From assembly GCA_007116075.1 (NCBI GenBank), contig SKJE01000054.1:1-52518 (forward strand): DNA of 52,518 nt, given 5' to 3'. Each line of letters starts with the position of its first letter. Position 1 is the stretch's first letter. This DNA comes from Spirochaetia bacterium. GTDB taxonomy: Bacteria; Spirochaetota; Spirochaetia; PWKH01. The notes under the pieces were generated by a model. The model was not told where the DNA came from. It did not search any database and saw nothing but the letters and a program-made list of their open reading frames with translations. Below are positions 16,640 through 51,279 of the stretch, in pieces. A program made the position numbers and the translations under genes.

Positions 16640-16651
16640 CTTCACTTCCCC

Positions 16652-18034: not shown

Positions 18035-18064
18035 TTCACACTCTCCTTATATATCTCATTATCC

Positions 18065-18883: not shown

Positions 18884-18964
18884 ATGTTTATTCTTTTACG
18901 AAAATGAGTAAATGTCAAGGATTTTTTGTAACTTTTTATGACTTAATATATCTCTACGCGGATT

Positions 18965-19002
18965 ATGTAATGTATATTACATGTTCATGCAAGTAATTAC
19001 TT
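18965..19002. promoter_or_regulatory. two GTAAT/ATTAC dyads upstream of the IclR gene (candidate operators)
   Basis: ATGTAAT-GTAT-ATTACAT (18965-18982) and the perfect 12-bp palindrome AAGTAATTACTT (18991-19002), 80-120 nt upstream of the iclR ATG. Confidence 0.35.
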
Positions 19003-19017
19003 GTACCAGGGCGTAAA

Positions 19018-19044
19018 AAATCCCCGGTTCATTACCGGGGATTT
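19018..19044 (-). terminator. intrinsic terminator of the opuA operon
   Basis: 10-bp stem AAATCCCCGG / CCGGGGATTT with a 7-nt loop, followed on the minus strand by a U-run (plus-strand A6 at 19015-19020). Lies 26 nt after the opuAC stop. Confidence 0.75.
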
Positions 19045-19069
19045 ATCAACAAAGATGTTGAGGTTTTAT

Positions 19070-19939: not shown

Positions 19940-19958
19940 ATATATCCTCCTAAAAAAA

Positions 19959-20798
19959 TTATTTCTTCTGTGTCGAGTTACCCAATGCCTGAGTAAGCCT
20001 GTCCAAATAAATCGCTAATATTACAATCGCCAGACCACTTTCAAATCCGACGTCTATTCTCAGCTGGGTAATACCCTTGAGCACCTCGTTACCAAGGCCT
20101 CCGGCACCGATCATGCCTGCTATCACCACCATGGACAATGAGAGCATAATGGTCTGGTTCACCCCCGCAAGGATGGTCGGCAGCGCAACCGGCAGTTCCG
20201 CCTTGATAAGCATCTGCCTCGGCGTAGCACCGAAGGAGAGCGCCGCCTCCTTGATCTCCAGCGGAACCTGGCGTATACCCAGATTCGTAAGCCTGACTGC
20301 CGGAGGCAGTGAGAAGATCAATGTGGCGATAACGCCCGGAACCGGGCCGAGTCGGAAAAAGAGTACTGCGGGTATCAGGTAGACAAAGGCCGGCAAGGTC
20401 TGCATAAAGTCAAGAATCGGCCTGACTACATTCTGTACCTTGTCGCTCTTTGAAGCCCAGATACCTACTGGTATACCGATAATCAGTGCAAATACCACCG
20501 CGGTGATCACCAGGGACAGCGTCTGCATTGTTTGTCTCCAGAGGTTCATCTGCATAATCAGCAGAAAACCTAAAAGACCAAATATACCCATGCCCCTACC
20601 GGCAATCCACCAGGCAAGGGCCGCAAAGGCAACTACCAATACCAGGGCTGGAACAGCCAAGAGAATTGACTGGAATCCACCCAGCAGCCCCCGAACGAGC
20701 ATACTGATCGTATCAAATATGAATGCTGCATGCTCCCTCAGCCAGTTAATTATTCCTTCAAACCATTTTCCAATGGAAATAAAATCAAACATACTCAT
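19959..20798 (-). CDS. opuAB: glycine betaine ABC transporter permease
   Basis: 279-aa membrane protein with an ABC-permease EAA-type loop (IKEAALSFGATPRQMLIKAELPVALP). ATGA overlap with opuAA. Confidence 0.85.
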   Translation of the reverse strand: MSMFDFISIGKWFEGIINWLREHAAFIFDTISMLVRGLLGGFQSILLAVPALVLVVAFAALAWWIAGRGMGIFGLLGFLLIMQMNLWRQTMQTLSLVITAVVFALIIGIPVGIWASKSDKVQNVVRPILDFMQTLPAFVYLIPAVLFFRLGPVPGVIATLIFSLPPAVRLTNLGIRQVPLEIKEAALSFGATPRQMLIKAELPVALPTILAGVNQTIMLSLSMVVIAGMIGAGGLGNEVLKGITQLRIDVGFESGLAIVILAIYLDRLTQALGNSTQKK

Positions 20799-22051
20799 GC
20801 TTCATTCCTCACAACTTCTTCGGAACCATTGTCCAGTTCACTGAGCACCGTTGGGGAGGCTTCATCGTCGGTAAGCTTATTTACCTCTCCCATAATTGTA
20901 GCGCGATCGACCGCTCCCATCAGCTTGCCATTGTCATCCACCACCGCAATCGGGTACTGGGTCTCTATAGCTGTGGCAAGCAAATCATAAATTGAAGTCT
21001 CCTTCCGGGTGGTAAACAGATCGTTTCTGACAATCTTCATGATGTCCCGTTCTTTCTGCTTGCGCATCTCTACTGCATCCTCGATGGTCACGATTCCAAG
21101 AAGACGACGGTCTCCGTCGACAGCCAGCACTGAGGACACAGTGGACTTCTCCATGGTTCGTACTGCCGCACTGCATCCCTCCCGGGGGAGTGTAATAGTG
21201 GGATACCGATGCATAATAGTTGAGGCTGTAAGCACCTTAGTTCTGTCCACATTCTGGACAAATGCTTCAACGTAATCATCGGCCGGTTCGGAGAGAATCT
21301 GCTCGGGAGTACCGATCTGACGAATCTTTCCATCGGGTCCCAGCATCACAATCCGGTCACCTAAATTCAGGGCCTCATCAAGATCATGGGTGATGAAAAC
21401 AATGGTTTTATGCAGTCTTGCTTGGATATCAAGCAGCTCATCCTGCATCTGGGATCGAATCAGGGGATCAAGGGCGCTGAAAGCTTCATCCATGAGTAGC
21501 ACCTCAGGATCATTAGCCAGAGCTCGTGCAAGACCGACCCGCTGCTTCATGCCTCCGGAGAGTTCATGGGGATAGCTCTCTTCATATCCCTGCAGTCCGA
21601 CCACACTGAGAGCATCCATGGCTTTCTTACGCCGCTGCTCCTTTTCCATACCCCCGACTTCCATACCAAATTCAACATTATCTACGACGGTTCGGTTCGG
21701 CAGCAGCCCGAAGTTCTGAAATACCATGGACATGGTTTTGCGCCGCATTTGCAGCAGCTCATGCTTATTCATCTCCATGATATTCTTTCCATCTACAAAA
21801 ATATCGCCCCTCGTCGGTTCCACCAGCCTGTTGAGACATCGGATGAGCGTTGATTTTCCGCTCCCCGACAGTCCCATCACCACACAGATCTCCTTCTGCT
21901 CGATCTGAAAGGATACTCCATTGATAGCAACGGTATTTCCCGTCTTATCGAGAATCTCTTCCCTGGTCATACCCTTCTCAAGCATTGGAAATACTCGTTG
22001 TGGATTTGCACCGAATATCTTATACAGATCTCGTATCTCAATTGCCGCCAT
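20795..22051 (-). CDS. opuAA: glycine betaine/L-proline ABC transporter ATP-binding protein with a C-terminal CBS pair
   Basis: Walker A GLSGSGKST, signature LSGGMKQRVGLARAL, Walker B LLMDEAFSALD, then tandem CBS-like repeats. Start moved to ATG 22051 because AGGAG lies 8 nt upstream. The track start is 22057. Confidence 0.9.
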   Translation of the reverse strand: MAAIEIRDLYKIFGANPQRVFPMLEKGMTREEILDKTGNTVAINGVSFQIEQKEICVVMGLSGSGKSTLIRCLNRLVEPTRGDIFVDGKNIMEMNKHELLQMRRKTMSMVFQNFGLLPNRTVVDNVEFGMEVGGMEKEQRRKKAMDALSVVGLQGYEESYPHELSGGMKQRVGLARALANDPEVLLMDEAFSALDPLIRSQMQDELLDIQARLHKTIVFITHDLDEALNLGDRIVMLGPDGKIRQIGTPEQILSEPADDYVEAFVQNVDRTKVLTASTIMHRYPTITLPREGCSAAVRTMEKSTVSSVLAVDGDRRLLGIVTIEDAVEMRKQKERDIMKIVRNDLFTTRKETSIYDLLATAIETQYPIAVVDDNGKLMGAVDRATIMGEVNKLTDDEASPTVLSELDNGSEEVVRNEA

Positions 22052-22206
22052 GTACATTGCTCCTATTAACTACTTTACCAGGTAATAACATACCCATACT
22101 CCTTCCCGATCCGGAAGGATCCCTCAGCAAAGGGGATATGGTGATGTGTGTTTTCACCTTCATTACCTAGGCGCCGATATCCCTAGGGCATCAGCGTGTG
22201 ATTAGT
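22052..22206 (-). promoter_or_regulatory. structured ~150-nt 5' leader of opuA (candidate cis-regulatory RNA)
   Basis: Four consecutive hairpins on the minus strand: CCUAGG..CCUAGG, GGUGA..UCACC, AUCCC..GGGAU, (U)CCUUCC..GGAAGG(A). They are bracketed by a possible closing helix AGGUAAU/AUUACCU, which competes with the first hairpin for its AGG. Confidence 0.4.
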
Positions 22207-30015: not shown

Positions 30016-30804
30016 CTAACGAAGTTTCATCTGCAGGTTCACCCCTAACGCAAAGGAGCGGTCAGCCCCGTCAAGCAGGTCAAGCCCGGCAATATCTGCT
30101 GAAATACGCAGTTGTTCCCCCAATCCGATAGGATTGAGCCGGAGTCCTGCATTGATAATCCCCCGATCAGGGTCAGTTCCGCTGGCATCATTACTGTAGG
30201 AGACATTTCCTACATCAAACACAAGACTTACGTACTCCTTTAATACCGAAGGAAAGAGCAGGGTATCAAAGCCGACAGAGAAATCTATATCAAATTTCAT
30301 ATCTTTTTGAAAGGTATAGCCGATGAGCACCGTAGTGAGCGCCGACTGATCAAAGAAAGAGCTCTTGAACGTTGAGGTCAGATACGCCTGGGCTGCCCAT
30401 TCTGTCTCGTTCCCGATATCAAGTGACTGACCCAGCAATCCAACGGCGATCATGGTGTTTCCGGTGTCCAGAAATCTCCACTTAGCTCCTGTCAGCACGT
30501 CAAAGGTTCCTTCAAAGGTATCAAGGGCAATCGTTGTCTCAAAGTTGCGAAACAGTGCAAAATTCACGTAGGGCACATGGGCAAGCTTTCCCTTTGTAGC
30601 AATCATAGTATACCCGGTGGAAAGAGCGAACTCGCTGTCGTCCCAGAAGAGGTCAGCACTGGGCGTTACAATGTGTCCGGTAGTTCCACTGATGGTCGTT
30701 CCATGAATTCCCTGTTCACCTGCCACCATTGATATATTCCCGAAAACCGAGAAAACCCCGCAGATCAATATGATCACGGTCACGATTACTGTTCTTCTGT
30801 TCAT
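30016..30804 (-). CDS. exported beta-strand-rich protein, possible outer-membrane beta-barrel
   Basis: Signal-peptide-like N-terminus (MNRRTVIVTVIILICGVFSVFG), then alternating hydrophobic/polar strands through to the C-terminus. Start at ATG 30804 (RBS GGAGGA). The longer track ORF would overlap the groEL terminator. Confidence 0.5.
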   Translation of the reverse strand: MNRRTVIVTVIILICGVFSVFGNISMVAGEQGIHGTTISGTTGHIVTPSADLFWDDSEFALSTGYTMIATKGKLAHVPYVNFALFRNFETTIALDTFEGTFDVLTGAKWRFLDTGNTMIAVGLLGQSLDIGNETEWAAQAYLTSTFKSSFFDQSALTTVLIGYTFQKDMKFDIDFSVGFDTLLFPSVLKEYVSLVFDVGNVSYSNDASGTDPDRGIINAGLRLNPIGLGEQLRISADIAGLDLLDGADRSFALGVNLQMKLR

Positions 30805-30866
30805 AACGCTTAATCCTCCATTACTCATAGTATAATGAAGCTTTCCATTGTTGACAACGCACAAAA

Positions 30867-30891
30867 ATACCCGGGAATACATCCCGGGTAT
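30867..30891 (-). terminator. intrinsic terminator of groEL
   Basis: 10-bp stem ATACCCGGGA / TCCCGGGTAT with a 5-nt loop, followed on the minus strand by TTTTGT. Lies 21 nt after the groEL stop. Confidence 0.7.
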
Positions 30892-39620: not shown

Positions 39621-41672
39621 CTAATTACGCTGTTCCAGCAGCGAGAGAAATGTCTGTTCGTCAACAATCTCGGCACCGAGTTCCCGAGCCTTCTCTAGTT
39701 TGCTTCCCGCCTTCTTTCCCGCCAGCAGGTGGGTCACCTGCTTCGACACCGCCGAGACAACCTTCCCTCCCTGCTGTTCAATAAGCTCTTCAGCACGGGT
39801 TCGCGGCGTAAAGGCCTCAAAGCTGCCGGTGACGCACCATGTCTGAGCAGTGAAGATCCCAGAAGCAGATTCCCTCCGGCTCTGGGAGAACTGGAGTCCT
39901 GATTGGCTCAGCCTCCGGATCCGCTTAACCATCTCCGGATTCCGGAGAGCCTCTCCCAGGGATGCGGCCATGGAGACTCCAAAGCCCTTAATCTCACACA
40001 GCTGCTGTTCCTCGTGCCGTTGGGCCAGGTCAAGCAGGAGCTCAATATCACCGTATCCGTGATTTACCAGCAGCTGGGACGCTTTTTTCCCGATCTCCCC
40101 AATTCCCAGGGATGCGAGCACCTGAACAAAGGGTCTCTCCTTGCTCTTCTCTATTGATGCTGTTACGGCATTTATTTTCTTCTCACCAAACCCGGCTACT
40201 CCAGAGAGCACCCGGTCATAGGGCAGCTCATAGAGATCAGCGGTATCCTTCAGCACCCCGAGTTCAATGAGGGTCCTGATGGTCTCCGGACCCACCCCGT
40301 CTATATCCATCTGCTGACGGGCACAGAAAAACCTGATCCGTCCAAATACCTGGTCGGGACATGCCGGGTTTGGACAGAAATGGTGGGCTCCCCGCTGTTC
40401 AAGAAAGGCGGAGCAGGAGGGACACTGCTTCGGGAGCTCCCAGTGGGGGGCTGCATCGGGCTGTTTATCAATGACCCGCTCAACCGCGGGGATCACATCT
40501 CCCCGTTTGGAGATCGCCACCCGGTCTCCCTCTGCAGCTTCCAGCACCCTGATATAATCCTGGTTGTGTAAAGTGACATTGGAAACCACTGAACCGCCGA
40601 TCTGCACTGGCTCCACCCGCGCTACGGGAGTCACCCGACCGGTACGCCCGATCTGCACTTCTATTGCATTGATCACCGTCTCAGCCTCGGGAGACTCAAA
40701 TTTGAAAGCCAGGGCCCATCGGGGATGATGTCCCGTATAGCCCAGCTGCTCCCGCACGTCAAGCTCATTTACCTTGAACACCAGACCGTCAATTTCATAG
40801 TCCCGCTGGCTCCGGGCTTCCGTCAGCTCCCGGATATACTCCTCCATCTTCCCGGTGTCGAGACGGCTCCAATGGGAAAATCCCTGATCATCCCATTCAC
40901 GGCGGCTCACCGGCTCTTGGGAGAACAGCGCAATATAACGGCTCAGGGGCAGACCGAGCCGGGAAAGATACCTGAGCATCTCGTCATGGGTGTCCAGGGC
41001 AAATCCTTCCGGATACCCTTCGTAGACGCAGAGCTGCAGGGGAACCCGGGCGGTCTCGCTGCTCTTGACCCGTCTCAGGGAACCTGCGGCAAGGTTCCTC
41101 GGATTTGCATAGACCGTTTCCCCCTCCCGGGCAATCTTCTCAAAGTCGCTTTTAGCAAGGAATATCTCTCCGCGTACCGCAATAGTGACCGGTTCAGTCA
41201 GCCTGAGGGGGACTTGACGGATGGTCCTTACATTCCCCGTGACATCATTGCCCGCAAACCCGTTGCCCCGGGTCACCGCCCGGTCAAGCACTCCCTCCCG
41301 GTAATAGAGCACAATAGCCGCTCCGTCAATTTTTTCCTCCGCGGCAAAGGAGAGGTGTCTCCCTGCCCTTCGGGCAGTCCTGTCCATCCACCCCTGGAGA
41401 TCAGGAAGGCTGTAGGCTTTATCAAGGCTGAGTACCGGTATGGTGTGCTCTGTTTCCGGCAGTTCACCGGAGAGGTCAGATCCGACCCTGAGGGAGGGAG
41501 AATCGCTTCTTTTCAGCTCCGGATGGGCTTGTTCAAGTTCAATCAGCCGGTCAAAGAGCCGATCATACTCCCGGTCACTCACCAGGGATGTTTGTTCAAC
41601 ATAGTAGGCGTGCTGGAGACGCTGCAGGTCACGTACCAGCCGATCATATTCCTGTTCCAGGTATTCACTCAT
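39621..41672 (-). CDS. ligA: NAD-dependent DNA ligase
   Basis: 683 aa with adenylation motif EEKIDGAA, a Zn-finger Cys cluster (CPSC...CPNPAC), HhH and a C-terminal BRCT (WCVTGSF...). RBS GGGAGGAG. Confidence 0.95.
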   Translation of the reverse strand: MSEYLEQEYDRLVRDLQRLQHAYYVEQTSLVSDREYDRLFDRLIELEQAHPELKRSDSPSLRVGSDLSGELPETEHTIPVLSLDKAYSLPDLQGWMDRTARRAGRHLSFAAEEKIDGAAIVLYYREGVLDRAVTRGNGFAGNDVTGNVRTIRQVPLRLTEPVTIAVRGEIFLAKSDFEKIAREGETVYANPRNLAAGSLRRVKSSETARVPLQLCVYEGYPEGFALDTHDEMLRYLSRLGLPLSRYIALFSQEPVSRREWDDQGFSHWSRLDTGKMEEYIRELTEARSQRDYEIDGLVFKVNELDVREQLGYTGHHPRWALAFKFESPEAETVINAIEVQIGRTGRVTPVARVEPVQIGGSVVSNVTLHNQDYIRVLEAAEGDRVAISKRGDVIPAVERVIDKQPDAAPHWELPKQCPSCSAFLEQRGAHHFCPNPACPDQVFGRIRFFCARQQMDIDGVGPETIRTLIELGVLKDTADLYELPYDRVLSGVAGFGEKKINAVTASIEKSKERPFVQVLASLGIGEIGKKASQLLVNHGYGDIELLLDLAQRHEEQQLCEIKGFGVSMAASLGEALRNPEMVKRIRRLSQSGLQFSQSRRESASGIFTAQTWCVTGSFEAFTPRTRAEELIEQQGGKVVSAVSKQVTHLLAGKKAGSKLEKARELGAEIVDEQTFLSLLEQRN

Positions 41673-41744
41673 ATTCTGACTCCTCCCTGTCTATTGTACT
41701 CTATTTTATTGCAGTTTCAATCCTATACATGGTACGCTGTATGC

Positions 41745-43724
41745 ATGGCACAAAAGTCACGTTACATCAGCGGCATGTACCGGCCGAATATGCTCTACGG
41801 AACGATTATCCGCTCCCCCATCAACCGGGGAAGGATTACCTCTATCGATATTCCCCCTATGGGGGATGATGTGGTGGTGGTCAGGGCATCGGATATCCCC
41901 GGGTCCAATGGGCTGAGGATTCTCAAGGAAACCCTGCCGCTGCTCACTGGAGAAACAATTCATTATCTCGGCCAGCCGATCCTTGCGGTCTTTGCTCCCA
42001 CCTTGGAGGATGCAAAGGTACACGCCTCGTCCGTGGCCATCCAGTTTGACACCATCCCTCCGGATATGGAGGACCGGGGTATCTTCACCGACAGAACGGT
42101 AACTCATGGCGACATTGACAAAGCCCTTATGGACCATCCCCGGGTCGTTGAACGCTCCTACCTGACGAGAGAGCTAGAGAGCAGCTACACAGCACCAACC
42201 GGTGCGCTCTCCTATCCTGAGGATGACCGTGTTATTATACATGCCTCAACCCAATGGCCCTTCCACGTCCGGGACAGCGTTGCTGAGGTCTGCGGGCTCC
42301 AGAAGCGCAGGATTTCGGTCTACACAACTCCCTACTCACCAAACTACGGTGAGAAGCTGGTATATCCGTCTATGTATGCATGCCTGACAGCCCTGGCATC
42401 CATCAAGTCAGGACGCCCTGCCCGCCTGATTTCCCGGTTCCCGGCCCTCAGTCCCCGGATCACCGTCTTAAGGAAAACCGCACTGGATGAATCCGGGATT
42501 CCCTGTGCCGAGGATATCCTGGTCACCGCTGATGTGGGTGCATATCCGCTTTTTGCCGAAGAGATAACCGAACACCTGCGGTGCGGGGTAATGGGATATA
42601 TTCCTCTGGACCACTACCGGATCCGGGTTAAAACCCTCCACTCTCCCCACCCGCCCCGGTACCATTTTGACGGTTTCGGATACCCTTCAGCCCTCTTCAG
42701 TTCCGAAAGTCATATTTCGGAAATCTGCTATGACCAGGAGGTAAACCCTGCCCAGTGGCGGTTAAACCAGTACACATCACAGCAGCTGCACCTGCTCAAC
42801 GGCGCATCCATGGGAGAGACACCCCTGGAAGAGGTGATCCAGCGGGTAGTGAAGGAGTCAGCCTTCAACCGAAAGTTTGCAGTATGTAAGATTAACCAGG
42901 TGCAGCGCAGCAGTCACGCCTCCTTCAGAGGGTACCTGCGGGGCATCGGGATTGCCTCAGGATTTGCCCCGAACGGCTTCTCCAGAAACTATCCCTGGGA
43001 AAAACTGTATTCAGTCCAGGTCCGTCTGGATGAGAACAACCGCCTTTCCATCCATACCAGTCTCTGTAATTCCGGGGCTTCCTACACATGGCGCAGAACC
43101 TCCTCAGAAATACTTGGGATTCCCGAGGAGAATATCGAGGTAGTGTACGGCGGCACCAGGGAACTACCAAATTCCGGACCCCATATCCTCTCCCGGGATA
43201 TTTCGATTATTACTCCCCTGATCCGCCGATGCTGCGAATCCATCAAGAGTCAGCGGTTCAAGGAACCCCTGCCGATCATTGTAAAGCGGGGCTTCAAGGC
43301 GAAGAGCCATGAACCGATACAGGAGTTCCATCGATTCAAGCCCTTCACCACCGCCTGCTGGGGGGCGGTGGTGGTGGAGCTTGAAGTGGACAGTGTCTCC
43401 TTTATGCCGGAATTCAGGGGTATCTGGTGTGCAATCGACTGCGGGAGACTCTTCAACGAGGAGGTCCTCAGAAACAATCTGCGTACCAAACTCCTGAAAA
43501 TCCTCCATCTCGCGGTAGGAGGGAGAATCACTCCCGACTACATGCCGAAAGTCGAAATTCAGTTTGTCGACCGGGGCAGTTCCGTACCGCTGTCAGGCAG
43601 CCAGGTGCTGGTGGGCCTATTCTATGCAGCCTTCACCTCAGCCCTCTCCCAGGCTTTAGACCGCTCCATCACGGAGCTTCCCATCACTCCCCCGGACATC
43701 CTGGCACAACTGGAGGATCTATGA
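41745..43724 (+). CDS. xanthine dehydrogenase/aldehyde oxidase family molybdopterin-subunit homolog, apparently degenerate
   Basis: About 659 aa. The N-terminal a/b-hammerhead-like region (LYGTIIRSPINRGRITSIDIPPMG...IHYLGQPILAVFAPTLEDA) and overall collinearity with the family are clear. The canonical GGGFGGK and GxGE motifs are not visible. Real start is ATG 41745; upstream, the 999-aa track ORF is antisense to ligA. Confidence 0.7.
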   Translation: MAQKSRYISGMYRPNMLYGTIIRSPINRGRITSIDIPPMGDDVVVVRASDIPGSNGLRILKETLPLLTGETIHYLGQPILAVFAPTLEDAKVHASSVAIQFDTIPPDMEDRGIFTDRTVTHGDIDKALMDHPRVVERSYLTRELESSYTAPTGALSYPEDDRVIIHASTQWPFHVRDSVAEVCGLQKRRISVYTTPYSPNYGEKLVYPSMYACLTALASIKSGRPARLISRFPALSPRITVLRKTALDESGIPCAEDILVTADVGAYPLFAEEITEHLRCGVMGYIPLDHYRIRVKTLHSPHPPRYHFDGFGYPSALFSSESHISEICYDQEVNPAQWRLNQYTSQQLHLLNGASMGETPLEEVIQRVVKESAFNRKFAVCKINQVQRSSHASFRGYLRGIGIASGFAPNGFSRNYPWEKLYSVQVRLDENNRLSIHTSLCNSGASYTWRRTSSEILGIPEENIEVVYGGTRELPNSGPHILSRDISIITPLIRRCCESIKSQRFKEPLPIIVKRGFKAKSHEPIQEFHRFKPFTTACWGAVVVELEVDSVSFMPEFRGIWCAIDCGRLFNEEVLRNNLRTKLLKILHLAVGGRITPDYMPKVEIQFVDRGSSVPLSGSQVLVGLFYAAFTSALSQALDRSITELPITPPDILAQLEDL

Positions 43725-44209
43725 ACATTACCTGTACCATCAACGGAAAACAGGCAGTATACCAGGTCTCCTCGGATATGCCCCTGCTCGACCTGCTTAT
43801 CGACAACGCCCATATCACATCACTGCGGCCGGGATGCCGGAAGGGACACTGCGGCAGCTGTATCGTGCTCATTGATGACCGGCCGGCCCTTTCCTGCCTG
43901 GTCCCTGTATTCGACATCCGGGGCAGAGATATCATCACCTTTGAACGGTTCCAGCGAACCCGGGACTCCACGGATATCAGGAAGGGTTTTGAGCAGGCGG
44001 AGGCGGTTCCCTGTTCCTACTGCTACCCATCAAAGACCCTTATCACCCACGGAATCATCAGCAGAAACGTAAATCCGGAACCCGATGAGATCCTGGCAGC
44101 CTTTGCCCTCCATGCATGCACCTGTCTCGAACCGGACCAGGTAGTCCGGGGTGTACTCCAGGCAGGGTCCTATCGGGGTCGAAGGAGGAAGTATGCCCGC
44201 AGTAAATAG
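43721..44209 (+). CDS. [2Fe-2S]-binding small subunit of a xanthine-dehydrogenase-family enzyme
   Basis: 162 aa with both cluster signatures: C-x4-C-x2-C-x11-C (CRKGHCGSCIVLIDDRPALSC) and C-x2-C-x31-C-x-C (CSYC...CTC). ATGA overlap with the upstream gene. RBS TGGAGGA. Confidence 0.85.
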   Translation: MNITCTINGKQAVYQVSSDMPLLDLLIDNAHITSLRPGCRKGHCGSCIVLIDDRPALSCLVPVFDIRGRDIITFERFQRTRDSTDIRKGFEQAEAVPCSYCYPSKTLITHGIISRNVNPEPDEILAAFALHACTCLEPDQVVRGVLQAGSYRGRRRKYARSK

Positions 44210-45077
44210 ATCCCCGGTTGTCTACACTCCTTCAACCGTATCGGAACTTCTTGAGCTCAGGACCCGCATGCCCCAGGCAACCATCTGGGCAGGGGGAACG
44301 GCACTCATGAGCCGCTACTATTTCTATCCCTACCCCCTCTCCCGTGATATCATCTCCCTGGGAAAGGTTGCGGAGCTCTCCCGGATTACCCGGACCGAGC
44401 GCTACCTCGATATCGGCTCCACCGCCACTATTGAACAGATCCTTACCGTGGGGCACCACATTCTCCCACCCCTGCTTGCCAGGGCACTGAGACAGATAGG
44501 GCCGCCCACCCTCACCTCCCGGGCAACAATCGGGGGAAATCTCTGCATACCTGATCTTCGACTCAACCTGAGTGCTTCTCTCTCCCTTTTTCAGGTGCAG
44601 GTGGAACTCCGGGGGGGCAAGCGCTTCGGCCAGCAGAGCAGATGGATCCCCCTCAACCGGCTCTACCAGAAGGAAGGGGGGCTTCTGATCCAAGACCATG
44701 AAGTGCTTACCCGCATCCGCATCACCTTCGATGAAGGAGACTTCCAGCAGTTTCAGCAGATCGGATTTCCCTACCGCTACCCCGAAGAGGCGGTGCTCTT
44801 CTCTCTCTTTGCCCGGCACAGTCAGTCCTCGGTATCGGACTACCGGCTAGCATTCACCTTTCCCCGTATCGGGATTTTCCGGGACCGGGACATTGAGTCG
44901 GCTGTGACCAACCAGAGCCTTCCACTGATGCACGGAGATATTGCTGAGATCTCTGATCTGCTGCGCAGGAGCCTCCATCATTTCAGCTCCAGGATTGCAC
45001 CGATCCAGTACGCCCGCTCAATCCGCGCCTTTGAACGATCCCTGACCCTGCTGAATACCAGAAGCGTCTCCCGGTAA
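44193..45077 (+). CDS. FAD-binding (CoxM/XdhB-like) medium subunit of a xanthine-dehydrogenase-family enzyme
   Basis: About 294 aa with the IWAGGTALMS (AGGT-x-L) FAD motif and LDIGSTATIEQI. ATG at 44193 is preceded by GAAGGAGG. Overlaps the FeS gene by 17 nt. Confidence 0.75.
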   Translation: MPAVNRSPVVYTPSTVSELLELRTRMPQATIWAGGTALMSRYYFYPYPLSRDIISLGKVAELSRITRTERYLDIGSTATIEQILTVGHHILPPLLARALRQIGPPTLTSRATIGGNLCIPDLRLNLSASLSLFQVQVELRGGKRFGQQSRWIPLNRLYQKEGGLLIQDHEVLTRIRITFDEGDFQQFQQIGFPYRYPEEAVLFSLFARHSQSSVSDYRLAFTFPRIGIFRDRDIESAVTNQSLPLMHGDIAEISDLLRRSLHHFSSRIAPIQYARSIRAFERSLTLLNTRSVSR

Positions 45078-45087: not shown

Positions 45088-45117
45088 TTTACAAGCACCG
45101 TCGCAGATGAGTATAGT
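45088..45117 (+). promoter_or_regulatory. candidate promoter of dnaE
   Basis: TTTACA (45088-45093), 18 nt, TATAGT (45112-45117), 20 nt upstream of the dnaE ATG. Confidence 0.4.
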
Positions 45118-45137: not shown

Positions 45138-48100
45138 ATGAGTGAATTCGTCCATCTCCATAACCATACTGAATTCTCCCTGCTTGACGGAGCCGCCCCG
45201 GTAAATAAACTGGTGGAGCGGGCCAAGGAACTGGGTATGAAGCATCTGGCTATTACAGATCACGGCAACATGTTCGGTGTGCTGCGGTTCTATAAGGCCT
45301 GCAGGGCTGCTGAAATTAACCCGATTATCGGCTGCGAATTCTATGTGGCTCCCCAGTCCCGGCTTATCAAGACCGGTACTGAAGGGATCAATACCTACCA
45401 CCACATGGTGCTGCTGGCCAAGAATAAGCAGGGATACAAGAATCTCCTGCTGCTCTCATCCCTGGCCTACACCGAAGGATTCTACTACAAACCCCGGATC
45501 GACGATGAGCTGCTCAGAGAGCATCATGAAGGACTGATCTGCACCAGCGCCTGTCTTGCCGGCGAGATACCCTCCCTGATTCTCCAGCGCAACTATGGGG
45601 CGGCAAAGCAGAAGGCCCTTCAGTATCGGGAACTCTTCGGGGAGGACCACTTTTATCTTGAACTGCAGGATCACGGAATCCCCGAACAGAAAACGGTGAA
45701 TCTCTCCCTTATTGAGCTCTCCCGGGAAACCGGCATTCCCCTCATTGCAGCCAATGATATTCATTATATCAACAGGGAGGATGCATCCGCCCAGGATATC
45801 ATGATCTGTATCGGCACCAACAGGAAGCTTAACGATGAAAAGCGGATGAAGTTCGAAACAGACCAGTTCTACCTGAAGAGCGCCGAGGAGATGGCCCAGA
45901 CCTTCAGCGAAGTTCCCGAAGCCCTAGAGAACACCGTGAAGATTGCCGAGATGTGTAATCTCACCATAGACCTTCCTGGACCGCTGCTGCCGGATTACAC
46001 CATTCCCGAGGAATTCAAGACCCCCGACGACTACCTGCGTCACCTTGCCCATGAGGGGCTCAAGCACCGCTATGAGACAGTCACCGATGAAATCAGCAGG
46101 CGGTGCGACTTCGAACTTGAAGTTATTATCTCCATGGGATTCACCGGCTACTTCCTGATTGTATGGGACTTCATCCGGTGGGCCAGGGAACAGGATATAC
46201 CCGTCGGACCCGGCAGGGGCTCCGGAGCGGGGTCCATCGTTGCCTATTCCCTGACCATCACCGACATAGACCCCCTGAAATATGACCTGCTCTTTGAGCG
46301 GTTTCTCAATCCTGAACGGGTAAGCATGCCTGACTTCGATATCGATTTCTGCTTCGAGCGGCGCCAGGAGGTGATCGACTATGTGAACCGGCGCTACGGC
46401 AGTGACCGGGTCGGCCAGATCATCACCTTCGGCACCCTGAAGGCAAAGGCCGCCATCAGGGATGTGGCCAGAGTGCTTGACATCCCCTACGCCGAGGCGG
46501 ACCAGATCGCCAAACTCATCCCCAAGGATCCCTCCATCACCATAGAGAAAGCTATGGAGCAGGAATCAAAACTCCGGGAACTCTATGGACAGGGAGGTAT
46601 ATACCGGGAACTCATCGATGCCAGCAAAAAGCTGCAGGGACACAGCAGGAATGCCTCCACCCATGCTGCCGGGGTGGTGATTGGGAAGGATATCCTCACC
46701 GAGTACGTGCCGCTCTACCGGGATCCGAAAACCGGGTCGGTATCGACCCAGTTCACCATGGACCAGCTTGAAGAGTGCGGCCTGGTGAAGATGGACTTTC
46801 TCGGTCTGAAGACGCTCACCCTTATCAGGAATACAGAGAAGATGATCCGCAGACAGGGCAAGCCCTTCGACATCAACCACATCCCCGAGGATGATCGGGC
46901 AACCTTCGCCATGCTCTCCGAGGGTAAAAGCGCCTGTGTATTCCAGTTTGAGGGTTCAGGTATGCAGGGGATCCTCAAGGAAGCCAAGCCTGACACTATC
47001 GAGGACCTGATAGCCTTGAATGCCCTCTACCGGCCGGGGCCGATGGCGAATATTCCACAGTTTATTGCATCGAAAAACGGAACTACTTCTATCACCTATC
47101 CCCATCCAGACCTGGAGGAGGTACTCAAGCCCACCTACGGAGTCATTGTCTACCAGGAGCAGGTGATGATGGCCGCCCAGATTATCGGCGGATTTTCCCT
47201 GGGCAGGGCGGATATCCTGCGCCGGGCTATGGGAAAAAAGCAACTCAAGGAGATGGCCCAGATGAAGGAGGAATTCCTTCAGGGTGCGTTGAAGAAGGGA
47301 TACTCAAGGGAGTTTGCTTCCCAGATTTTTGAGATGCTGGAGCCCTTTGCAGGGTACGGATTCAACAAGTCCCATGCTGCGGCATACTCCATCCTGGCAT
47401 ACCAGACCGCCTATCTGAAGGCAAACTACCCGGTTGAGTTCATGGCAGCCAATCTCACCAACGAAATCAACGACCCCGACAAACTGGCCCTCTACATTGC
47501 AGAAACCCAGAGTATGGGCATAGAGGTACTTCCGCCGGACATCAATATATCCGAACAGGACTTCACCGCAAAGGACGGGAGAGTGGTCTATGGGCTCAGG
47601 GGAATCAAGCATGTCGGTACCGGTGTCGTAGAGGCTATCGTTACCGAGCGGGAAGAGCACGGTCCCTATAGTTCCATGGTTGATGTACTCAACCGGCTTG
47701 ATCTGCGCCAGATCAACAGGAAGGTACTGGAGGCCCTGATCCAGTGCGGAGCCTTCGACTCGCTGGGGGAGCACCGGGCGACGCTGCTGCTCAATCTGGA
47801 ACGGGCAACCGAATATGTTGCAAGCAAGAAAGAGGCCGAGCGCTACGGCCAGAGCTCCCTCTTCGATCTTGAAGAGGAGGAATCCCTCGGCAATTTTGAG
47901 ATGCACCAGACTCCGGATTTTGACCTCAAGGAAAAGCTGCAGTTTGAACGGAACCTGCTGGGATTCTACTTTTCCGGTCACCCCATGGATAAGTACCGCC
48001 AGCAGTGGGAGCAGGCTGTCCGGATGGACCTGTCCCAGCCTGATACCCTCTCTGCAAGCAGGCCTGGAAATCTGCTGGCCATGGTGCAGCAGGTCCGCTC

Positions 48101-48560
48101 CATAGTAACCAAGAAGGGTGATCCCATGGCCTTCGTCATTGTCGAGGACTTCCGGGGATCCATTGAGCTGATTTTTTTCCCCAAACTATGGCAGACCTGC
48201 CGCCACCTGGTGGAACCGGAGGCGGTGCTGGGCTTCAAGGGAAAGGTTGACCGCTCTAAGGGAGAAGTGAAGTTTCTCGTGGACGAGGTGGTCCAGCCTG
48301 AGGAGCTGCAGCCTGAAAATGTCACCCAGTTTCATATCAGGTGCAGCCGGGAATTATGCTCCCATGAACTCATAAATAGGATGCGGGAAATCCTGATTGA
48401 CCATCCCGGTCCCTGCAGGGTATATATGCATCTTGCAGATGAAGTGAAAGAAGAAGAGACGGTAATCCGGGCATCAACTCAGCTGCTTGTGGAGTATTCA
48501 GAGGCCCTTACCCAGCTGCTGAAGACCATACCAGCAGTAACTGAAGTCTGGTACGGATAG
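45138..48560 (+). CDS. dnaE: DNA polymerase III subunit alpha
   Basis: 1140 aa with an N-terminal PHP domain (FVHLHNHTEFSLLDG), polymerase core (PDFDIDF), HhH and OB regions. Confidence 0.96.
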   Translation: MSEFVHLHNHTEFSLLDGAAPVNKLVERAKELGMKHLAITDHGNMFGVLRFYKACRAAEINPIIGCEFYVAPQSRLIKTGTEGINTYHHMVLLAKNKQGYKNLLLLSSLAYTEGFYYKPRIDDELLREHHEGLICTSACLAGEIPSLILQRNYGAAKQKALQYRELFGEDHFYLELQDHGIPEQKTVNLSLIELSRETGIPLIAANDIHYINREDASAQDIMICIGTNRKLNDEKRMKFETDQFYLKSAEEMAQTFSEVPEALENTVKIAEMCNLTIDLPGPLLPDYTIPEEFKTPDDYLRHLAHEGLKHRYETVTDEISRRCDFELEVIISMGFTGYFLIVWDFIRWAREQDIPVGPGRGSGAGSIVAYSLTITDIDPLKYDLLFERFLNPERVSMPDFDIDFCFERRQEVIDYVNRRYGSDRVGQIITFGTLKAKAAIRDVARVLDIPYAEADQIAKLIPKDPSITIEKAMEQESKLRELYGQGGIYRELIDASKKLQGHSRNASTHAAGVVIGKDILTEYVPLYRDPKTGSVSTQFTMDQLEECGLVKMDFLGLKTLTLIRNTEKMIRRQGKPFDINHIPEDDRATFAMLSEGKSACVFQFEGSGMQGILKEAKPDTIEDLIALNALYRPGPMANIPQFIASKNGTTSITYPHPDLEEVLKPTYGVIVYQEQVMMAAQIIGGFSLGRADILRRAMGKKQLKEMAQMKEEFLQGALKKGYSREFASQIFEMLEPFAGYGFNKSHAAAYSILAYQTAYLKANYPVEFMAANLTNEINDPDKLALYIAETQSMGIEVLPPDINISEQDFTAKDGRVVYGLRGIKHVGTGVVEAIVTEREEHGPYSSMVDVLNRLDLRQINRKVLEALIQCGAFDSLGEHRATLLLNLERATEYVASKKEAERYGQSSLFDLEEEESLGNFEMHQTPDFDLKEKLQFERNLLGFYFSGHPMDKYRQQWEQAVRMDLSQPDTLSASRPGNLLAMVQQVRSIVTKKGDPMAFVIVEDFRGSIELIFFPKLWQTCRHLVEPEAVLGFKGKVDRSKGEVKFLVDEVVQPEELQPENVTQFHIRCSRELCSHELINRMREILIDHPGPCRVYMHLADEVKEEETVIRASTQLLVEYSEALTQLLKTIPAVTEVWYG

Positions 48561-48577
48561 CCCACCCGAAAAAAATA

Positions 48578-48586
48578 TGGTATACT
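48578..48586 (+). promoter_or_regulatory. extended -10 element upstream of yggT
   Basis: TGgTATACT at 48578-48586, 17 nt upstream of the yggT ATG. There is no clear -35. Confidence 0.3.
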
Positions 48587-48602
48587 CAATCTTGAGAGGT
48601 GA

Positions 48603-49199
48603 ATGATGCAGGCAGCAGCACAGATTATTAGTTTTATTGTTTCCATATACTCATTTCTGATCGTCATCAGAATTCTCTTCACCTGGGTCAGTCTCGGACA
48701 GGATCAGTTCGGCGGATTGTACCAGACCCTCTGTTCCCTCACTGATCCGGTACTCAATATGTTCCGGAATATCAGCTGGATGCGCCGGGGGAGCATCGAC
48801 TTTTCTCCCCTGGCCGCACTGGTCACCCTGGGTATTCTCAACACCATCTTCACGACCCTCGCCCGACAGGGACGTATTACCTTGGGCATTATCCTGGGCA
48901 TCATACTCCAGGGCATCTGGTCTGTGGTCGCCTTTTTCCTGCTGATGTTCATCATTCTGCTTATTGTCCGGCTTATCATGGATTTTTCCGAGTCAGCCTC
49001 GGCATCACAGTACCGGCCGCTGGTGGACTCGTTAACCAGGTGGCCTATCGATCTTGCCCACAGTCTCTTTTTTTCAGGAAAGAGCATCTCCATCCGGCAG
49101 GGAATCTACGGAGGATTGCTGCTGACCATCGGAATGCGCTTTATCGGGGGCATTATCATCAACTGGCTGATCCGGCTGCTCCTGAGCCTGCCTATTTAG
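48603..49199 (+). CDS. yggT: YggT-family integral membrane protein (two-repeat form)
   Basis: 198 aa. The N-terminal IISFIVSIYSFLIVIRILFTWV block is typical of YggT/Ycf19. A second hydrophobic repeat lies in the C-terminal half. Confidence 0.75.
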   Translation: MMQAAAQIISFIVSIYSFLIVIRILFTWVSLGQDQFGGLYQTLCSLTDPVLNMFRNISWMRRGSIDFSPLAALVTLGILNTIFTTLARQGRITLGIILGIILQGIWSVVAFFLLMFIILLIVRLIMDFSESASASQYRPLVDSLTRWPIDLAHSLFFSGKSISIRQGIYGGLLLTIGMRFIGGIIINWLIRLLLSLPI

Positions 49200-49206
49200 T
49201 TGGATC

Positions 49207-51279
49207 ATGTTTCTCAAGGAACTTAACCAGAGTATTACAACCCTGAAGGGAATTGGTGAACGCACCGCCGAGGCCTATGCCAAGCTCGGTATCAGGACAT
49301 GGTCTGACCTGCTCACCCACCTGCCGAGAAGTTATGAGGACAGGACGGTCACCAGGCCCTTTGCCAAGGGATATGACGGTTCTCCTGTGCTGACGGTTAT
49401 GGATGTGGTTGCCCATGAACAGATCAGGTATCGGAAAGGCTTTGCCCTGAAAGTCATTGTAAAAGACGATACCGGACCGGCTGCCCTGCTCTGCTACGGC
49501 AGGAACTTCCTGAAAAGCACCTTGGAAGTGGGAAGGAGATTGTATTTCTACGGCCAGGGGAAACTCCAGTATGGAGAGCTCCAGTTCAGCGCCTTTGAGA
49601 CCGCCCCCTGGGAGGAGGGAGTGCCTCCGCCGGCGGAGTTTTCCCGGATCCTGCCGGTATATCCCCTCACAGAGGGACTTACCCAGAGACGGCTCAGGAG
49701 GGATATTGCAGCACTGCTTCGAAGCAGTGCCCGCCACCTCAGTGAGGAGCTGCCCCAGGATATACGTTCCCGCCATGATCTCATGGGTATCACCCAGGCA
49801 GTCAAACGGATCCATTTCCCCCCTGACCTCAAGGCAATTGAACGTGCCCGGCACACCCTGGTCTTCGGGGAATTTTTCTACCTCAACCTCCTGATACGCC
49901 GACGGGCTCTGAAGCGAAAGGAGGAGCGCAGGAAGACTGTCACCTATCCCAGGGGACTCTATGAACGTCTGAAGCACGCTCTACCCTTCCCCCTCACCGA
50001 GGGACAGCAGAGAACCCTTGGTGAAATCCTGGAGGATCTGGAGGGAGATACCCCTGCGGCCCGGCTGATCCAAGGGGATGTCGGATCCGGAAAGACCCTC
50101 ACCGCCCTGCTTTCTGCTGTCGTGCTGATTGAAGCGGGCAGGCAGGCTGCATTCATGGTGCCCACGGAACTGCTTGCCAGGCAGCACGCAGAGGAGGCAG
50201 CCCGACTCCTGGAACCTTTAGGTATCAATACTGCGCTGCTCCATGGGGGACTGAAACCCTCTGAGCGGAAACTGCTTGTGAAGGCCCTCTCCTCAGGAGA
50301 TATAGACCTGCTCATCGGCACCCATGCCCTCTTCAGCAGGGATGTCTCCTTCCGGGATCTTGGACTGGTGATTATTGATGAACAGCACCGTTTCGGGGTG
50401 CTCCAGCGTGTCGCCCTGAGCAGGAAGGGATCCACCCCGGATATGCTCTATATGACCGCAACACCTATTCCCCGGACACTGACCATGACCGTTTTCGGGG
50501 ACCTGGACGTATCCACCATTGACACAATGCCTCCGGGAAGAAAGCCGGTGATCACCCATCTCGCATCAGAACAGAGCCGCATGCGGGTCTACCAGGCGGT
50601 CCGTCGGGAGCTCGAGCGGGGAAGACAGGCCTATTTTGTGTATCCCCGGATCGGCCAGGGAGTTGAGGAGGCCCTCAAGGATGCCACATCCATGTACCGG
50701 TACCTCACAGAAGAGGTGTATCCCGGCATGCCGGCAGGTCTGGTGCACTCCAAGGTTCCCCAGGATGAGCAGGAGCGGACCATGGCCGCCTTTAAAAAGG
50801 GATCAATCTTATATCTTGTGGCCACCAGCGTCGTTGAAGTCGGAGTCCATGTGCCCCATGCTACCTGTATGGTCATTGAGCACGCAGAACGGTTCGGTCT
50901 TTCAGCCCTGCACCAGCTGCGGGGGCGGGTCGGCAGGGGATCCGACCAGGCTTATGCCTTTTTCATCTACTCCCGGGAGCTGACCGACCAGGGAAAACAG
51001 CGACTGAAGGTCATGAAGGAGACAACCGACGGATTCCGGATAGCCGAAGAGGATTTGAAAATCCGGGGGCCCGGGGATATATCGGGAACCCGGCAGTCCG
51101 GATTCATCCAGCTCACCTTCGGCGATTTGGTAAGGGATCTCAAGGTGCTGCACACGACCCGCAAGGAGGCGGACCGAATCATTGATGAGGATCCTGGACT
51201 GCTCTCGCCGTCGTACTCGATCTGCCGGGAGGTGCTCGAACGATCGGCAGACTTTACTGAAGAGCTTTTTGACGGCTAG
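49207..51279 (+). CDS. recG: ATP-dependent DNA helicase RecG
   Basis: 690 aa with a wedge/OB N-domain, Walker A GDVGSGKT, DEQHRFG, and the QLRGRVGRG motif VI. Confidence 0.95.
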   Translation: MFLKELNQSITTLKGIGERTAEAYAKLGIRTWSDLLTHLPRSYEDRTVTRPFAKGYDGSPVLTVMDVVAHEQIRYRKGFALKVIVKDDTGPAALLCYGRNFLKSTLEVGRRLYFYGQGKLQYGELQFSAFETAPWEEGVPPPAEFSRILPVYPLTEGLTQRRLRRDIAALLRSSARHLSEELPQDIRSRHDLMGITQAVKRIHFPPDLKAIERARHTLVFGEFFYLNLLIRRRALKRKEERRKTVTYPRGLYERLKHALPFPLTEGQQRTLGEILEDLEGDTPAARLIQGDVGSGKTLTALLSAVVLIEAGRQAAFMVPTELLARQHAEEAARLLEPLGINTALLHGGLKPSERKLLVKALSSGDIDLLIGTHALFSRDVSFRDLGLVIIDEQHRFGVLQRVALSRKGSTPDMLYMTATPIPRTLTMTVFGDLDVSTIDTMPPGRKPVITHLASEQSRMRVYQAVRRELERGRQAYFVYPRIGQGVEEALKDATSMYRYLTEEVYPGMPAGLVHSKVPQDEQERTMAAFKKGSILYLVATSVVEVGVHVPHATCMVIEHAERFGLSALHQLRGRVGRGSDQAYAFFIYSRELTDQGKQRLKVMKETTDGFRIAEEDLKIRGPGDISGTRQSGFIQLTFGDLVRDLKVLHTTRKEADRIIDEDPGLLSPSYSICREVLERSADFTEELFDG

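Follow-up and report, generated by a model that had tools for sequence, protein, structure and literature searches.

Three overlapping genes in the window (the whole stretch of 52,518 nucleotides that was analysed) probably encode a functional Moco-independent FAD/[2Fe-2S] heterotrimer of molybdenum-hydroxylase descent, in which the large subunit has been remodelled. A housekeeping redox function is proposed for this complex and no purine or aldehyde catabolism; the term "degenerate" applies to its molybdenum chemistry only. A preliminary description of this DNA had stated that the large subunit (L) lost the Moco loops and the catalytic Glu, while the small (S) and medium (M) subunits keep their cofactor ligands, and every testable part of it held. 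It had left the choice between a scaffold and a different chemistry. Here, a different cofactor, ligand or chemistry is favoured at least equally with a passive scaffold, because the new pocket residues are invariant throughout the clade.

The genes are arranged in the order L-S-M (Table 1), with a 4-nt ATGA overlap between L and S and a 17-nt overlap between S and M, in agreement with the layout and coordinates reported before, and they are translationally coupled. The short gap between the divergent ligA and L presumably carries the promoters of both genes. In this gap, a promoter scan gave a single consensus match, a minus-strand promoter-like site; a further such site belongs to dnaE. Framed by ligA on one side and by dnaE, yggT and recG on the other, the module is located in a core-genome context, as had been recognized earlier, and neither Moco-related nor catabolic genes were found in the whole 52-kb window.

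Table 1. Module and neighbouring features in the window, and counterparts in L of motifs and residues of canonical large subunits (bovine numbering).
Feature	Position	Strand	Remark
ligA	39621-41672	minus	flanks module
Intergenic, ligA start / L start	41673-41744		72 nt, from coordinates; divergent genes
Promoter-like site in ligA-L gap	41720-41693	minus	promoter scan
L, XDH-family large subunit homologue	41745-43724	+	659 aa
S, small [2Fe-2S] subunit	43721-44209	+	162 aa
M, FAD-binding medium subunit	44193-45077	+	294 aa
Promoter-like site of dnaE	45088-45117		promoter scan
Conserved downstream block dnaE-yggT-recG	45138-51279	+	context of M
dnaE	45138-48560	+	Pfam; starts 60 nt past M
yggT	48603-49199	+	Pfam; same strand as M
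recG	49207-51279	+	Pfam; same strand as M
GGGFGGKE (795-802)	L: S198-P-N-Y-G-E-K-L205		profile alignments
xEP	L: T-A150-P		profile alignments
F911-R-G-F-G-G-P-Q918	L: F308-D-G-F-G-Y-P-S315		profile alignments
G1039-Q1040	L: S443-G444		profile alignments
Q1194	L: N578		profile alignments
E1261, catalytic Glu	L: Q620		profile alignments

L features the Pfam domains Ald_Xan_dh_C, MoCoBD_1 and MoCoBD_2 (PF01315, PF02738, PF20256) and aligns with canonical large subunits at an hhalign probability of 100 across 679 columns. Its AF2 model (pLDDT 89.4, pTM 0.90) reached TM values of 0.83-0.89 to 1jro_B, 1fiq_C, 1rm6 and 1sij in Foldseek, representing XDH, AOX, 4-HBCR and MOP. L thus keeps the complete, collinear XDH-family fold consisting of the a/b-hammerhead and two MoCoBD domains. 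About 100 residues are missing due to internal deletions near canonical positions 523-600 and 651-677 and at the N-terminus; that L is collinear with the family yet short, as suspected before, was borne out by profile alignments, hhalign and AF2.

For motif mapping, L was aligned to PDB chains with phmmer and profiles, and to 32 canonical large subunits with hhalign, profile to profile. These methods reproduced the former by-eye assignment, according to which GGGFGGK, xEP, FRGFG, GQG and the catalytic Glu are lost, and the profile alignments, as the more rigorous check, confirmed the absence of the Moco loops and of this Glu from L (Table 1). Where canonical enzymes show GGGFGGK, GQGxxT, GQxxGG and FRGFG, L reads SPNYGEK, NSGASYT, NNLRTK and FDGFG, respectively. 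The canonical invariant columns G232, G233, F235, R347, G468, Q636 and G639 are all replaced, and 30 of the 77 canonical columns with at least 85% conservation are kept. The catalytic Glu (bovine E1261, R. capsulatus E730), present in 32/32 canonical sequences, is Q620 in L, and S, Q or P across its type A relatives. Two remnants speak against a Moco-less reading: Q170 (in TQWP), the equivalent of bovine Gln767 beside Mo, is retained in L and in 80 of 81 sequences (32/33 type A, 48/48 type B), and the dithiolene-contacting loop has partly preserved its S483-R484 segment.

The xanthine substrate residues E802, R880, F914 and F1009 (bovine) correspond to L205, H277, F311 and R414 in L, with a type A consensus of L, Q, L and a variable residue. 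All NCBIfam XDH-type models scored far under cut-off, the xanthine dehydrogenase equivalogs giving the module 66-95 bits as compared to cut-offs of 780-916. The replacement of E802, R880 and F1009 and such scores speak against a bona fide purine-hydroxylating XDH. Likewise, the module is no CoxLSM CO dehydrogenase: it features neither AYRCSFR (form I) nor AYRGAGR (form II), L reading YHFDGFGYP there, and the TIGR02416 score is 23.7 bits, with the cut-off at 991.

The other two subunits retain their cofactor ligands. S contains the Pfam domains Fer2/Fer2_2 with the ligand sets C39-x4-C44-x2-C47-x11-C59 and C98-x2-C101-x31-C133-x-C135, i.e., both 2Fe-2S signatures are intact with exactly the Cys spacing described before, and all eight Cys are kept in 80/80 homologues. 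The Gln of QCGFC, which hydrogen-bonds the pterin (bovine Q112), is replaced by Pro97 in S, and 34/34 type A sequences have Pro there, whereas the canonical sister locus L006 has Gln. The Moco-contact Gln was thus lost independently, on this second subunit. Furthermore, the C-terminus of S is an Arg-rich tail, YRGRRRKYARSK; this basic tail is found clade-wide and is absent from the canonical sister. M matches FAD_binding_5 (PF00941) at E 4e-23 and features AGGT at 33-36 and TIGGN at 112-116 (ATIGGNL); the AGGT-x-L noticed earlier was found again, reading WAGGTAL. G34, T36, T112, G114 and G115 of M are invariant or near-invariant across 77 homologues. CO_deh_flav_C was not detected in M by Pfam, its C-terminal domain being too diverged for this model.

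A survey of the phyletic distribution of this degenerate subtype, as proposed in the preliminary description, revealed relatives in at least 125 species-representative genomes, and 80/80 listed belong to Spirochaetota. They share the gene order and the overlaps, the 4-nt L/S overlap occurring in 71/81 loci and the 17-nt S/M overlap in 51/79, with intact overlapping ORFs in the approximately 80 species examined. Among 75 complete loci, 37 have dnaE directly after M, with DnaE identities as low as 56%. For L, dN/dS amounted to 0.082, 0.104 and 0.062 in type A pairs with unsaturated dS; in close pairs, L evolves faster (0.082) than S and M (0.008 and 0.014). The module is therefore no one-off but belongs to a clade that spans the Spirochaetota and evolves under strong purifying selection. 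No MocA, XdhC or Moco-type neighbour was found within 8-10 kb at the degenerate-clade loci examined.

The clade is recognizable by its own signature in L, comprising TQWPFHxR, P-S past the D/G-E/G-K loop, SGPxxL, C497, RF..PLP, W561 and Q636, with D-E-K and SGPxxLSR as further clade-invariant elements of the former Mo site. It is additionally defined by an S with eight Cys and Arg-rich tail and by overlapping genes in L-S-M order. The clade-invariant residues fall exactly in the former Mo-site segments of L. The window L contains every signature residue, in TQWPFHVR (169-176), G-E-K-L (202-205), YPS (207-209), NSGPHILSRD (476-485) and RCCESIKSQRFKEPLPI (494-510), and groups with type A in an NJ tree.

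The FAD of M would be the entry or exit point for electrons, with NAD(P)H or else a small acceptor as the most likely exchange partner. From there, the electrons would travel via both [2Fe-2S] clusters of S, and L would form the structural core that holds the other two subunits. The pocket that once took up Mo in L may have been remodelled into a clade-invariant site that probably binds a different ligand, the Arg-rich S tail or a partner, but not Moco; side chains that are bulky or charged (D/G-E-K for G-G-K, V/I-L for A-A) would fill the pterin space. Should the Borrelia burgdorferi genes bb_0554-0556 be orthologous, which their order and sizes suggest, the role would be linked to peroxide tolerance.

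Several other explanations have to be weighed against such a Moco-independent oxidoreductase. That the genes represent a non-functional relic on its way to loss is hardly conceivable: motif loss and scores far under all NCBIfam cut-offs would fit decay, but it is contradicted by the ORFs, which are intact and overlap in the approximately 80 species examined, by conserved order and overlaps, by a dN/dS of 0.06-0.10, by the synteny conserved to 56% DnaE identity and by the knock-out phenotypes of the probable Borrelia counterpart (PMC9993122). L could instead be a passive, ligand-free scaffold that holds S and M, with all chemistry at the FAD, e.g., as NAD(P)H oxidase or diaphorase, and the Fe-S clusters as electron buffer or redox sensor. 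Possible though somewhat doubtful, this explanation draws on the high variability of several former active-site columns in type A (entropy of 1.8-3.1 bits at the equivalents of F1009, T1010, G1039, Q1040, T1077, Q1194 and E1261), on the faster evolution of L relative to S and M and on canonical L subunits, for which the pterin moiety is dispensable in folding and assembly (PDB 1ffu). Nevertheless, the pocket segments TQWPFHxR, SGPxxL and D/G-E/G-K are invariant in 81 sequences, which seems to exceed the needs of a cavity filler, and the dN/dS range applies across 659 residues, a constraint that is strong for a mere scaffold.

A Mo or W enzyme that binds its cofactor non-canonically, as implied by the name xdhACB in Borrelia, seems quite improbable. 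It would agree with the intact fold (AF2, Foldseek), the kept Gln767 equivalent and partial S-R loop, the Glu1261 and Arg880 equivalents in Treponema-type relatives and the allopurinol and urate phenotypes of Borrelia (PMC9993122). However, all three glycine-rich pterin/phosphate loops are replaced, A1078/A1079 became V/I and L, G799/G800 became D/G and E, and the Gln of S became Pro. Moreover, no MocA, XdhC or Moco gene lies near the degenerate loci examined, whereas the canonical sister has a MocA-like one, and neither B. burgdorferi nor T. pallidum is known to possess Moco biosynthesis genes. Against a xanthine-type Mo enzyme in particular stand L, H and R in place of E802, R880 and F1009 in the window.

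Within the preferred reading of a Moco-independent FAD/[2Fe-2S] oxidoreductase, a more specific version, albeit an unlikely one, assumes that the former Moco pocket of L was converted to a site for another nucleotide-type ligand, e.g., a nucleotide sugar. The Moco pocket of bacterial relatives binds pterin-cytosine dinucleotide. The idea arises from the near-invariable coupling of Treponema-type modules to PseB/PseC-like amino-sugar genes, from the clade-invariant residues of the pocket and from the Arg-rich tail on S. If it were true, the redox module of the ligA/dnaE-linked type A, to which the window and probably Borrelia belong, would have a core function including peroxide tolerance.

Among known systems, the canonical LSM enzymes (1jro, 3hrd, 1rm6, 1sij) share the fold with the window L (TM 0.83-0.89) and the Fe-S and FAD ligands with S and M, but are 50-140 residues longer and keep GGxFGGKEE, FRGFGxPQ, GQG/GNG, GQIEGG, KGxGE and QCGFC, all of which the window module is without. 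The canonical sister group (P0056/P0059/P0060) features the same three-subunit architecture and L-S-M order with every motif kept; its S is without the Arg-rich tail, and in L006 the gene for a MocA-like cytidylyltransferase overlaps the start of L.

Closer to the window are the Treponema-type modules of T. medium CP027017, Treponema sp. OMZ strains and Breznakiella homolactica RmG30. They show the same order and overlaps, TQWPFHxR, SGPxxLSR and RF..PLP in L, the loss of GGGFGGK, GQG and GQxxGG and an Arg-rich tail on S, whereas the loop is D-G-K and not D-E-K as in the window type. In 52 loci, a PseC/DegT-like aminotransferase is located directly upstream, usually together with a PseB/PglF-like 4,6-dehydratase and, in L005, LoaP, while the window type lies beside ligA instead. 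As an observation against a Moco-less reading, Treponema-type sequences keep the catalytic Glu in 36 of 48 and an Arg at the R880 position in 39 of 48 cases, in contrast to Q620 and H277 in the window. Given these residues, the clade ancestor could still have been an enzyme using the former Mo site. Judged by gene order, sizes and annotation, T. pallidum TP0079-0081 is probably another counterpart and a Treponema-type member.

The B. burgdorferi operon named xdhACB consists of bb_0554 (622 aa, "hypothetical"), bb_0555 (155 aa, Fe-S) and bb_0556 (289 aa, FAD); it is required for resistance to H2O2 and TBHP and for the infection of ticks and mice (Phelan et al., 2023, PMC9993122). It was read as a true xanthine dehydrogenase producing urate; XDH activity could not be demonstrated, and the effects of allopurinol and urate were taken by the authors as support for it, which counts against a Moco-less reading (PMC9993122). 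The diverged bb_0554 is annotated as hypothetical, and its Phyre2 Moco domain covered only 12% (PMC9993122). By gene order (large, Fe-S, FAD), sizes (622/155/289 vs. 659/162/294 aa) and annotation, this cluster is probably the counterpart of the window module; its host is a spirochaete like that of the window, but a pathogen whose genome is reduced and whose iron content is very low. The Borrelia ligA is BB_0552, adjoining the cluster as in the window, while dnaE is not known to follow it, unlike in the window. The label "xanthine dehydrogenase" is probably wrong for the Borrelia cluster, because the Moco-less version is strongly conserved across spirochaetes, and the motif analysis of the clade argues against a urate-making XDH. 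The xanthine dehydrogenase/urate model deserves re-examination, since neither B. burgdorferi nor T. pallidum is known to have a genome that allows Moco to be made. Environmental and cultivable relatives, i.e., Sphaerochaetaceae, Breznakiella and oral Treponema, offer easier systems for biochemistry.

The xanthine-oxidase family is taken as defined by the molybdenum cofactor. A phylum-wide clade that shed the Moco contacts on two subunits, kept FAD and Fe-S clusters and is strongly selected would be a clear and testable Mo-independent descendant of this family. The clade signature further provides sequence-level markers for the problem of "orphan" molybdoproteins. Such molybdoenzyme homologues without a Moco pathway were reported for 292 bacteria, with no distinguishing sequence features in that survey (Peng, Xu and Zhang, 2018, PMC6147048). 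The orphan XO-family proteins have in common with the present module the concept of homologues that may be Mo-independent, whereas in the window clade two subunits have lost Moco contacts in a concerted manner and the clade has gained a signature of its own.

The xanthine dehydrogenase (XDH)-like module consists of genes for a large, molybdopterin-type (L), a small, Fe-S (S) and a medium, FAD (M) subunit, with a 4-nt ATGA overlap between L and S and one of 17 nt between S and M. Divergent ligA lies upstream, and dnaE, yggT and recG follow downstream. In Pfam, L matched Ald_Xan_dh_C, MoCoBD_1 and MoCoBD_2, S matched Fer2/Fer2_2 and M matched FAD_binding_5, and all NCBIfam models of characterised family members stayed about ten-fold under their cut-off for the window proteins. 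The L frame is open for 340 further codons in the 5' direction, antisense to ligA. Homologue alignments place the true start of L at 41745, and the longer open reading frame (ORF) is thus a mechanical artefact. Promoter and terminator sites were not more numerous in the window than in shuffled sequence.

Coordinates of the module, its neighbours and further features in the window (forward-strand positions) and in relative loci
Feature	Sequence	Position	Strand	Remark
L	window	41745-43724	+	659 aa, ORF call
S	window	43721-44209	+	162 aa, ORF call
M	window	44193-45077	+	294 aa, ORF call
ligA	window	39621-41672	-	divergent, 72 nt upstream of L
dnaE	window	45138-48560	+	60 nt downstream of M
Extended L frame	window	40725-43724	+	999 aa
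Solute-type cluster	window	4750-22057
ORF	window	10493-11230	-	245 aa, no Pfam match at E<=1e-5
ORF	window	30016-30882	-	288 aa, no Pfam match at E<=1e-5
Module with aminotransferase neighbour	L005, Treponema-type	6645-13396		LoaP antiterminator also upstream; MarR-EPS regulator and AroB-like gene downstream
Module with aminotransferase neighbour	L087, Treponema-type	5305-11344
Module with aminotransferase neighbour	L091, Treponema-type	8729-13455
Module with Moco gene	L006, sister group	9417-14058
Glycerate kinase gene	L089, divergent type A	11355-12497		between M and dnaE

The preliminary description had noted by eye that L lacks the motifs which bind the molybdenum cofactor (Moco) in this family. 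These losses were reproduced by a phmmer alignment of L with nicotinate dehydrogenase and mouse AOX3, by a 43-sequence profile against bovine XO chain C (chain index + 570 giving bovine numbering) and by a global profile-profile alignment against 32 canonical large subunits, complemented by per-column statistics. These four analyses jointly give the mapping, and the reading by eye was therefore right. Bovine Q767 is retained as Q170 of L. In turn, G796-G797-F798-G799-G800-K801-E802 became P199-N-Y-G-E-K-L205, R880 became H277, and F911-R912-G-F914-G became F308-D309-G-F311-G. F1009 and T1010 correspond to R414 and N415, G1039 and Q1040 to S443 and G444, A1078-A1079-S1080 to I481-L482-S483, Q1194 to N578 and E1261 to Q620, and the invariant Glu of the canonical xEP motif is replaced by A150. 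Columns conserved to at least 85% in the 32 canonical subunits are kept in L at 30 of 77 positions, and the approximately 100 residues missing from L are internal deletions according to the profile-profile alignment. The confident AlphaFold2 model of L (pLDDT 89.4, pTM 0.90) superposes, at query-normalised TM values of 0.83-0.89 and 16-20% identity, on XDH, XO, AOX, 4-hydroxybenzoyl-CoA reductase, quinoline oxidoreductase and MOP; in this predicted structure the family fold is retained.

The intactness ascribed to the other two subunits held as well. S possesses all eight Cys of its two 2Fe-2S signatures at the described spacing, as do 80/80 homologues for the Cys themselves, and M features AGGT and also TIGGN. 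The Gln of the QCGFC motif, which touches the pterin in canonical enzymes (bovine Q112), is Pro97 in S of the window.

The loss of motifs follows a gradient. The canonical sister group (large subunits P0056, P0059 and P0060, about 25% identity) retains GGxFGGKEE, FRGFGxPQ, GQG/GNG, GQIEGG and KGxGE in L and QCGFC in S. In its locus L006, the start of L shares 4 nt with a gene for a MocA/YgfJ-like Moco cytidylyltransferase, and the end of M overlaps a gene of 207 aa that matches nothing in Pfam or NCBIfam. Type B, which occurs in Treponemataceae, Breznakiellaceae and others, lacks GGGFGGK, reading H-L-D-G-K-L/I-W instead, as well as the Arg of FRGFG, GQG and GQxxGG; it retains xEP, and 39/48 sequences still have Arg at the position of R880 and 36/48 the catalytic Glu. 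On a second branch of the NJ tree, this Glu is lost, too. The branch comprises the ligA/dnaE-linked type A including the window, two Sediminispirochaeta-like loci, the oral-Treponema type and a 'GIGS' group. A scenario in which the catalytic Glu vanished many times independently was rejected, as the tree shows essentially one Glu-less branch and one sporadic loss (L086). Types A and B share residues which canonical subunits do not have, namely W171, F173 and H174 (TQWPFHxR), P208-S209, E273, W338, R376, S439, G478-P479-x-x-L482, C497, R504-F505, P510, W561 and Q636, each conserved to 85-100% within both types.

The large-subunit search yielded about 60 relatives of 640-730 aa, mainly from Spirochaetia MAGs. 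When one genome for each GTDB species was scanned with an alignment of 17 closer sequences, at least 125 genomes contained relatives, and 80/80 among the matches listed belong to the Spirochaetota. Carriers include Sphaerochaetaceae, Treponemataceae, Breznakiellaceae (with the cultured Breznakiella homolactica RmG30), Pleomorphochaeta and Sediminispirochaeta, and a third search added oral Treponema (T. medium, Treponema sp. OMZ strains) as a further subtype. The module is present in the complete genomes OY782041.1 (type A), CP067089.2 (Breznakiella homolactica), CP027017.1 (T. medium) and OY762953.2. The M profile matched 578 clusters (50% identity) at E<=1e-30 among 1.84 billion representatives, the best 150 of these 578 all scoring >233 bits; the named-database search with this profile covered the best 120 of 399 matches. 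The order L-S-M occurs throughout, with the 4-nt L/S overlap in 71/81 loci and an S/M overlap of 17, 11 or 14 nt in 75/79. In type A pairs whose dS was not saturated, L had dN/dS values of 0.082, 0.104 and 0.062, and S and M had values of 0.008-0.118. The spread in the clade, the preserved order and overlaps, the low dN/dS and the invariant Cys show that the genes are functional. Two Spirochaetaceae MAGs from soda-lake sediment are the nearest relatives (L identity 69% and 63%). A cluster in the first 22 kb of the window, resembling ectoine/compatible-solute catabolism and uptake, agrees with this origin. It contains two M24 peptidase/creatinase-like genes, an M20 peptidase, ornithine cyclodeaminase-like, PALP, aspartate kinase, semialdehyde dehydrogenase and class-III aminotransferase genes, an IclR regulator, TRAP DctPQM and an OpuA-type ABC transporter.

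Type A loci share the block aminotransferase <- ligA <- -> L-S-M -> dnaE -> yggT -> recG, which persists to a DnaE identity of 56%. Among 75 complete loci, dnaE is immediately 3' of the module in 37 and ligA immediately 5' in 27. Outside type A, a same-strand PseC/DegT-like aminotransferase gene directly precedes L in 52 loci, usually with a PseB/PglF-like UDP-GlcNAc 4,6-dehydratase gene further upstream. In Treponema-type loci, these neighbours point to an operon tie with amino-sugar synthesis. The order PseB-PseC-L-S-M-dnaE-yggT-recG, seen in ten loci, appears to be the more ancient one. An analogy to E1/E3 systems, in which the DegT-like protein would be a PMP/[2Fe-2S] 3-dehydrase (RfbH/AscC-like) reduced by S/M, fails because these proteins carry SFYATK, the usual motif with the catalytic Lys, just 2-3 scattered Cys and PseC as top NCBIfam match. 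In one divergent type A lineage (P0053, locus L089; L of 642 aa), Pfam is blind to S, yet all 8 Cys are present. M comprises 317 aa instead of about 280 in three loci of one termite-gut Treponema group (L041, L044, L045), which suggests a putative C-terminal extension based on the called start and stop. Furthermore, S ends in an Arg-rich tail (residues 150-162; YRGRRRKYARSK in the window), reading Y/F-RRRRRVRR in type A and IRQRRLYGR in type B. The tail is kept across the spirochaete clade (S genes of loci L001-L091) and missing in the canonical sister L006. Candidate partners of the tail are nucleic acid, a membrane and the acidic D-E in the remodelled pocket of L.

Spirochaete L-S-M is a phylum-wide heterotrimer of the XDH family that is under selection and keeps its Fe-S and FAD ligands; the Moco contacts were lost in concert on L and S, and the pocket was remodelled. 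As judged from these sequences, the complex probably works independently of Moco. Electrons would pass between FAD and the two [2Fe-2S] clusters, with L as the presumed structural core. Three of the signature segments coincide with those which in canonical structures line the Mo centre and dithiolene. The pocket is remodelled rather than simply given up, and other columns that once provided contacts vary strongly in type A. Given Moco independence, repurposing of the pocket is tentatively proposed, in which case it may hold something else, be it a novel ligand, a partner or the tail of S. The amino-sugar gene link of the Treponema type invites the speculation that such a ligand might be of nucleotide type. 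A purely passive scaffold, likewise free of Moco, is somewhat less likely. Non-canonical binding of Moco or W is quite improbable; genes for Moco biosynthesis, mocA and xdhC were not found in the 52-kb window. A non-functional relic is barely conceivable, and ORF integrity and dN/dS rule out a pseudogene.

Possible counterparts exist in pathogenic spirochaetes. TP0077 and TP0078 of Treponema pallidum are cap5D and spsC (CapD and DegT families), TP0080 was annotated as 'quinoline 2-oxidoreductase', and BB_0552 of Borrelia burgdorferi is ligA. Such neighbours would match the two contexts of the clade. A literature search on the TP0077-81 locus tags returned nothing relevant. In an in-silico study (PMC4403809), TPASS_0079 and TPASS_0081 are given as hypothetical proteins resembling XDH. 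In B. burgdorferi, bb_0554-0556 form an operon encoding a 'hypothetical' protein of 622 aa with a Phyre2 Moco domain on 12% of its length, an Fe-S protein of 155 aa and an XDH subunit M of 289 aa (Phelan et al., 2023; PMC9993122). It is needed against H2O2 and TBHP and for survival in tick and mouse, and was renamed xdhACB, although its activity could not be biochemically confirmed according to the authors (PMC9993122). Compared by gene order, size and annotation, homology of both clusters to L-S-M is a strong lead. A survey counted 292 bacteria that carry molybdoenzyme homologues without a Moco pathway and found no distinguishing sequence features; spirochaete names are absent from the supplements (Peng et al., 2018; PMC6147048). 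Already known are the family, its architecture and, for a probable member, a genetic phenotype. No account was found in the searched literature of how the Moco determinants were lost in concert, nor of the clade signature, the Arg-rich tail, the limited phyletic range or the two conserved contexts. These findings would open what a virulence-relevant operon of spirochaetes does to direct testing, and they challenge the name that this operon now carries.
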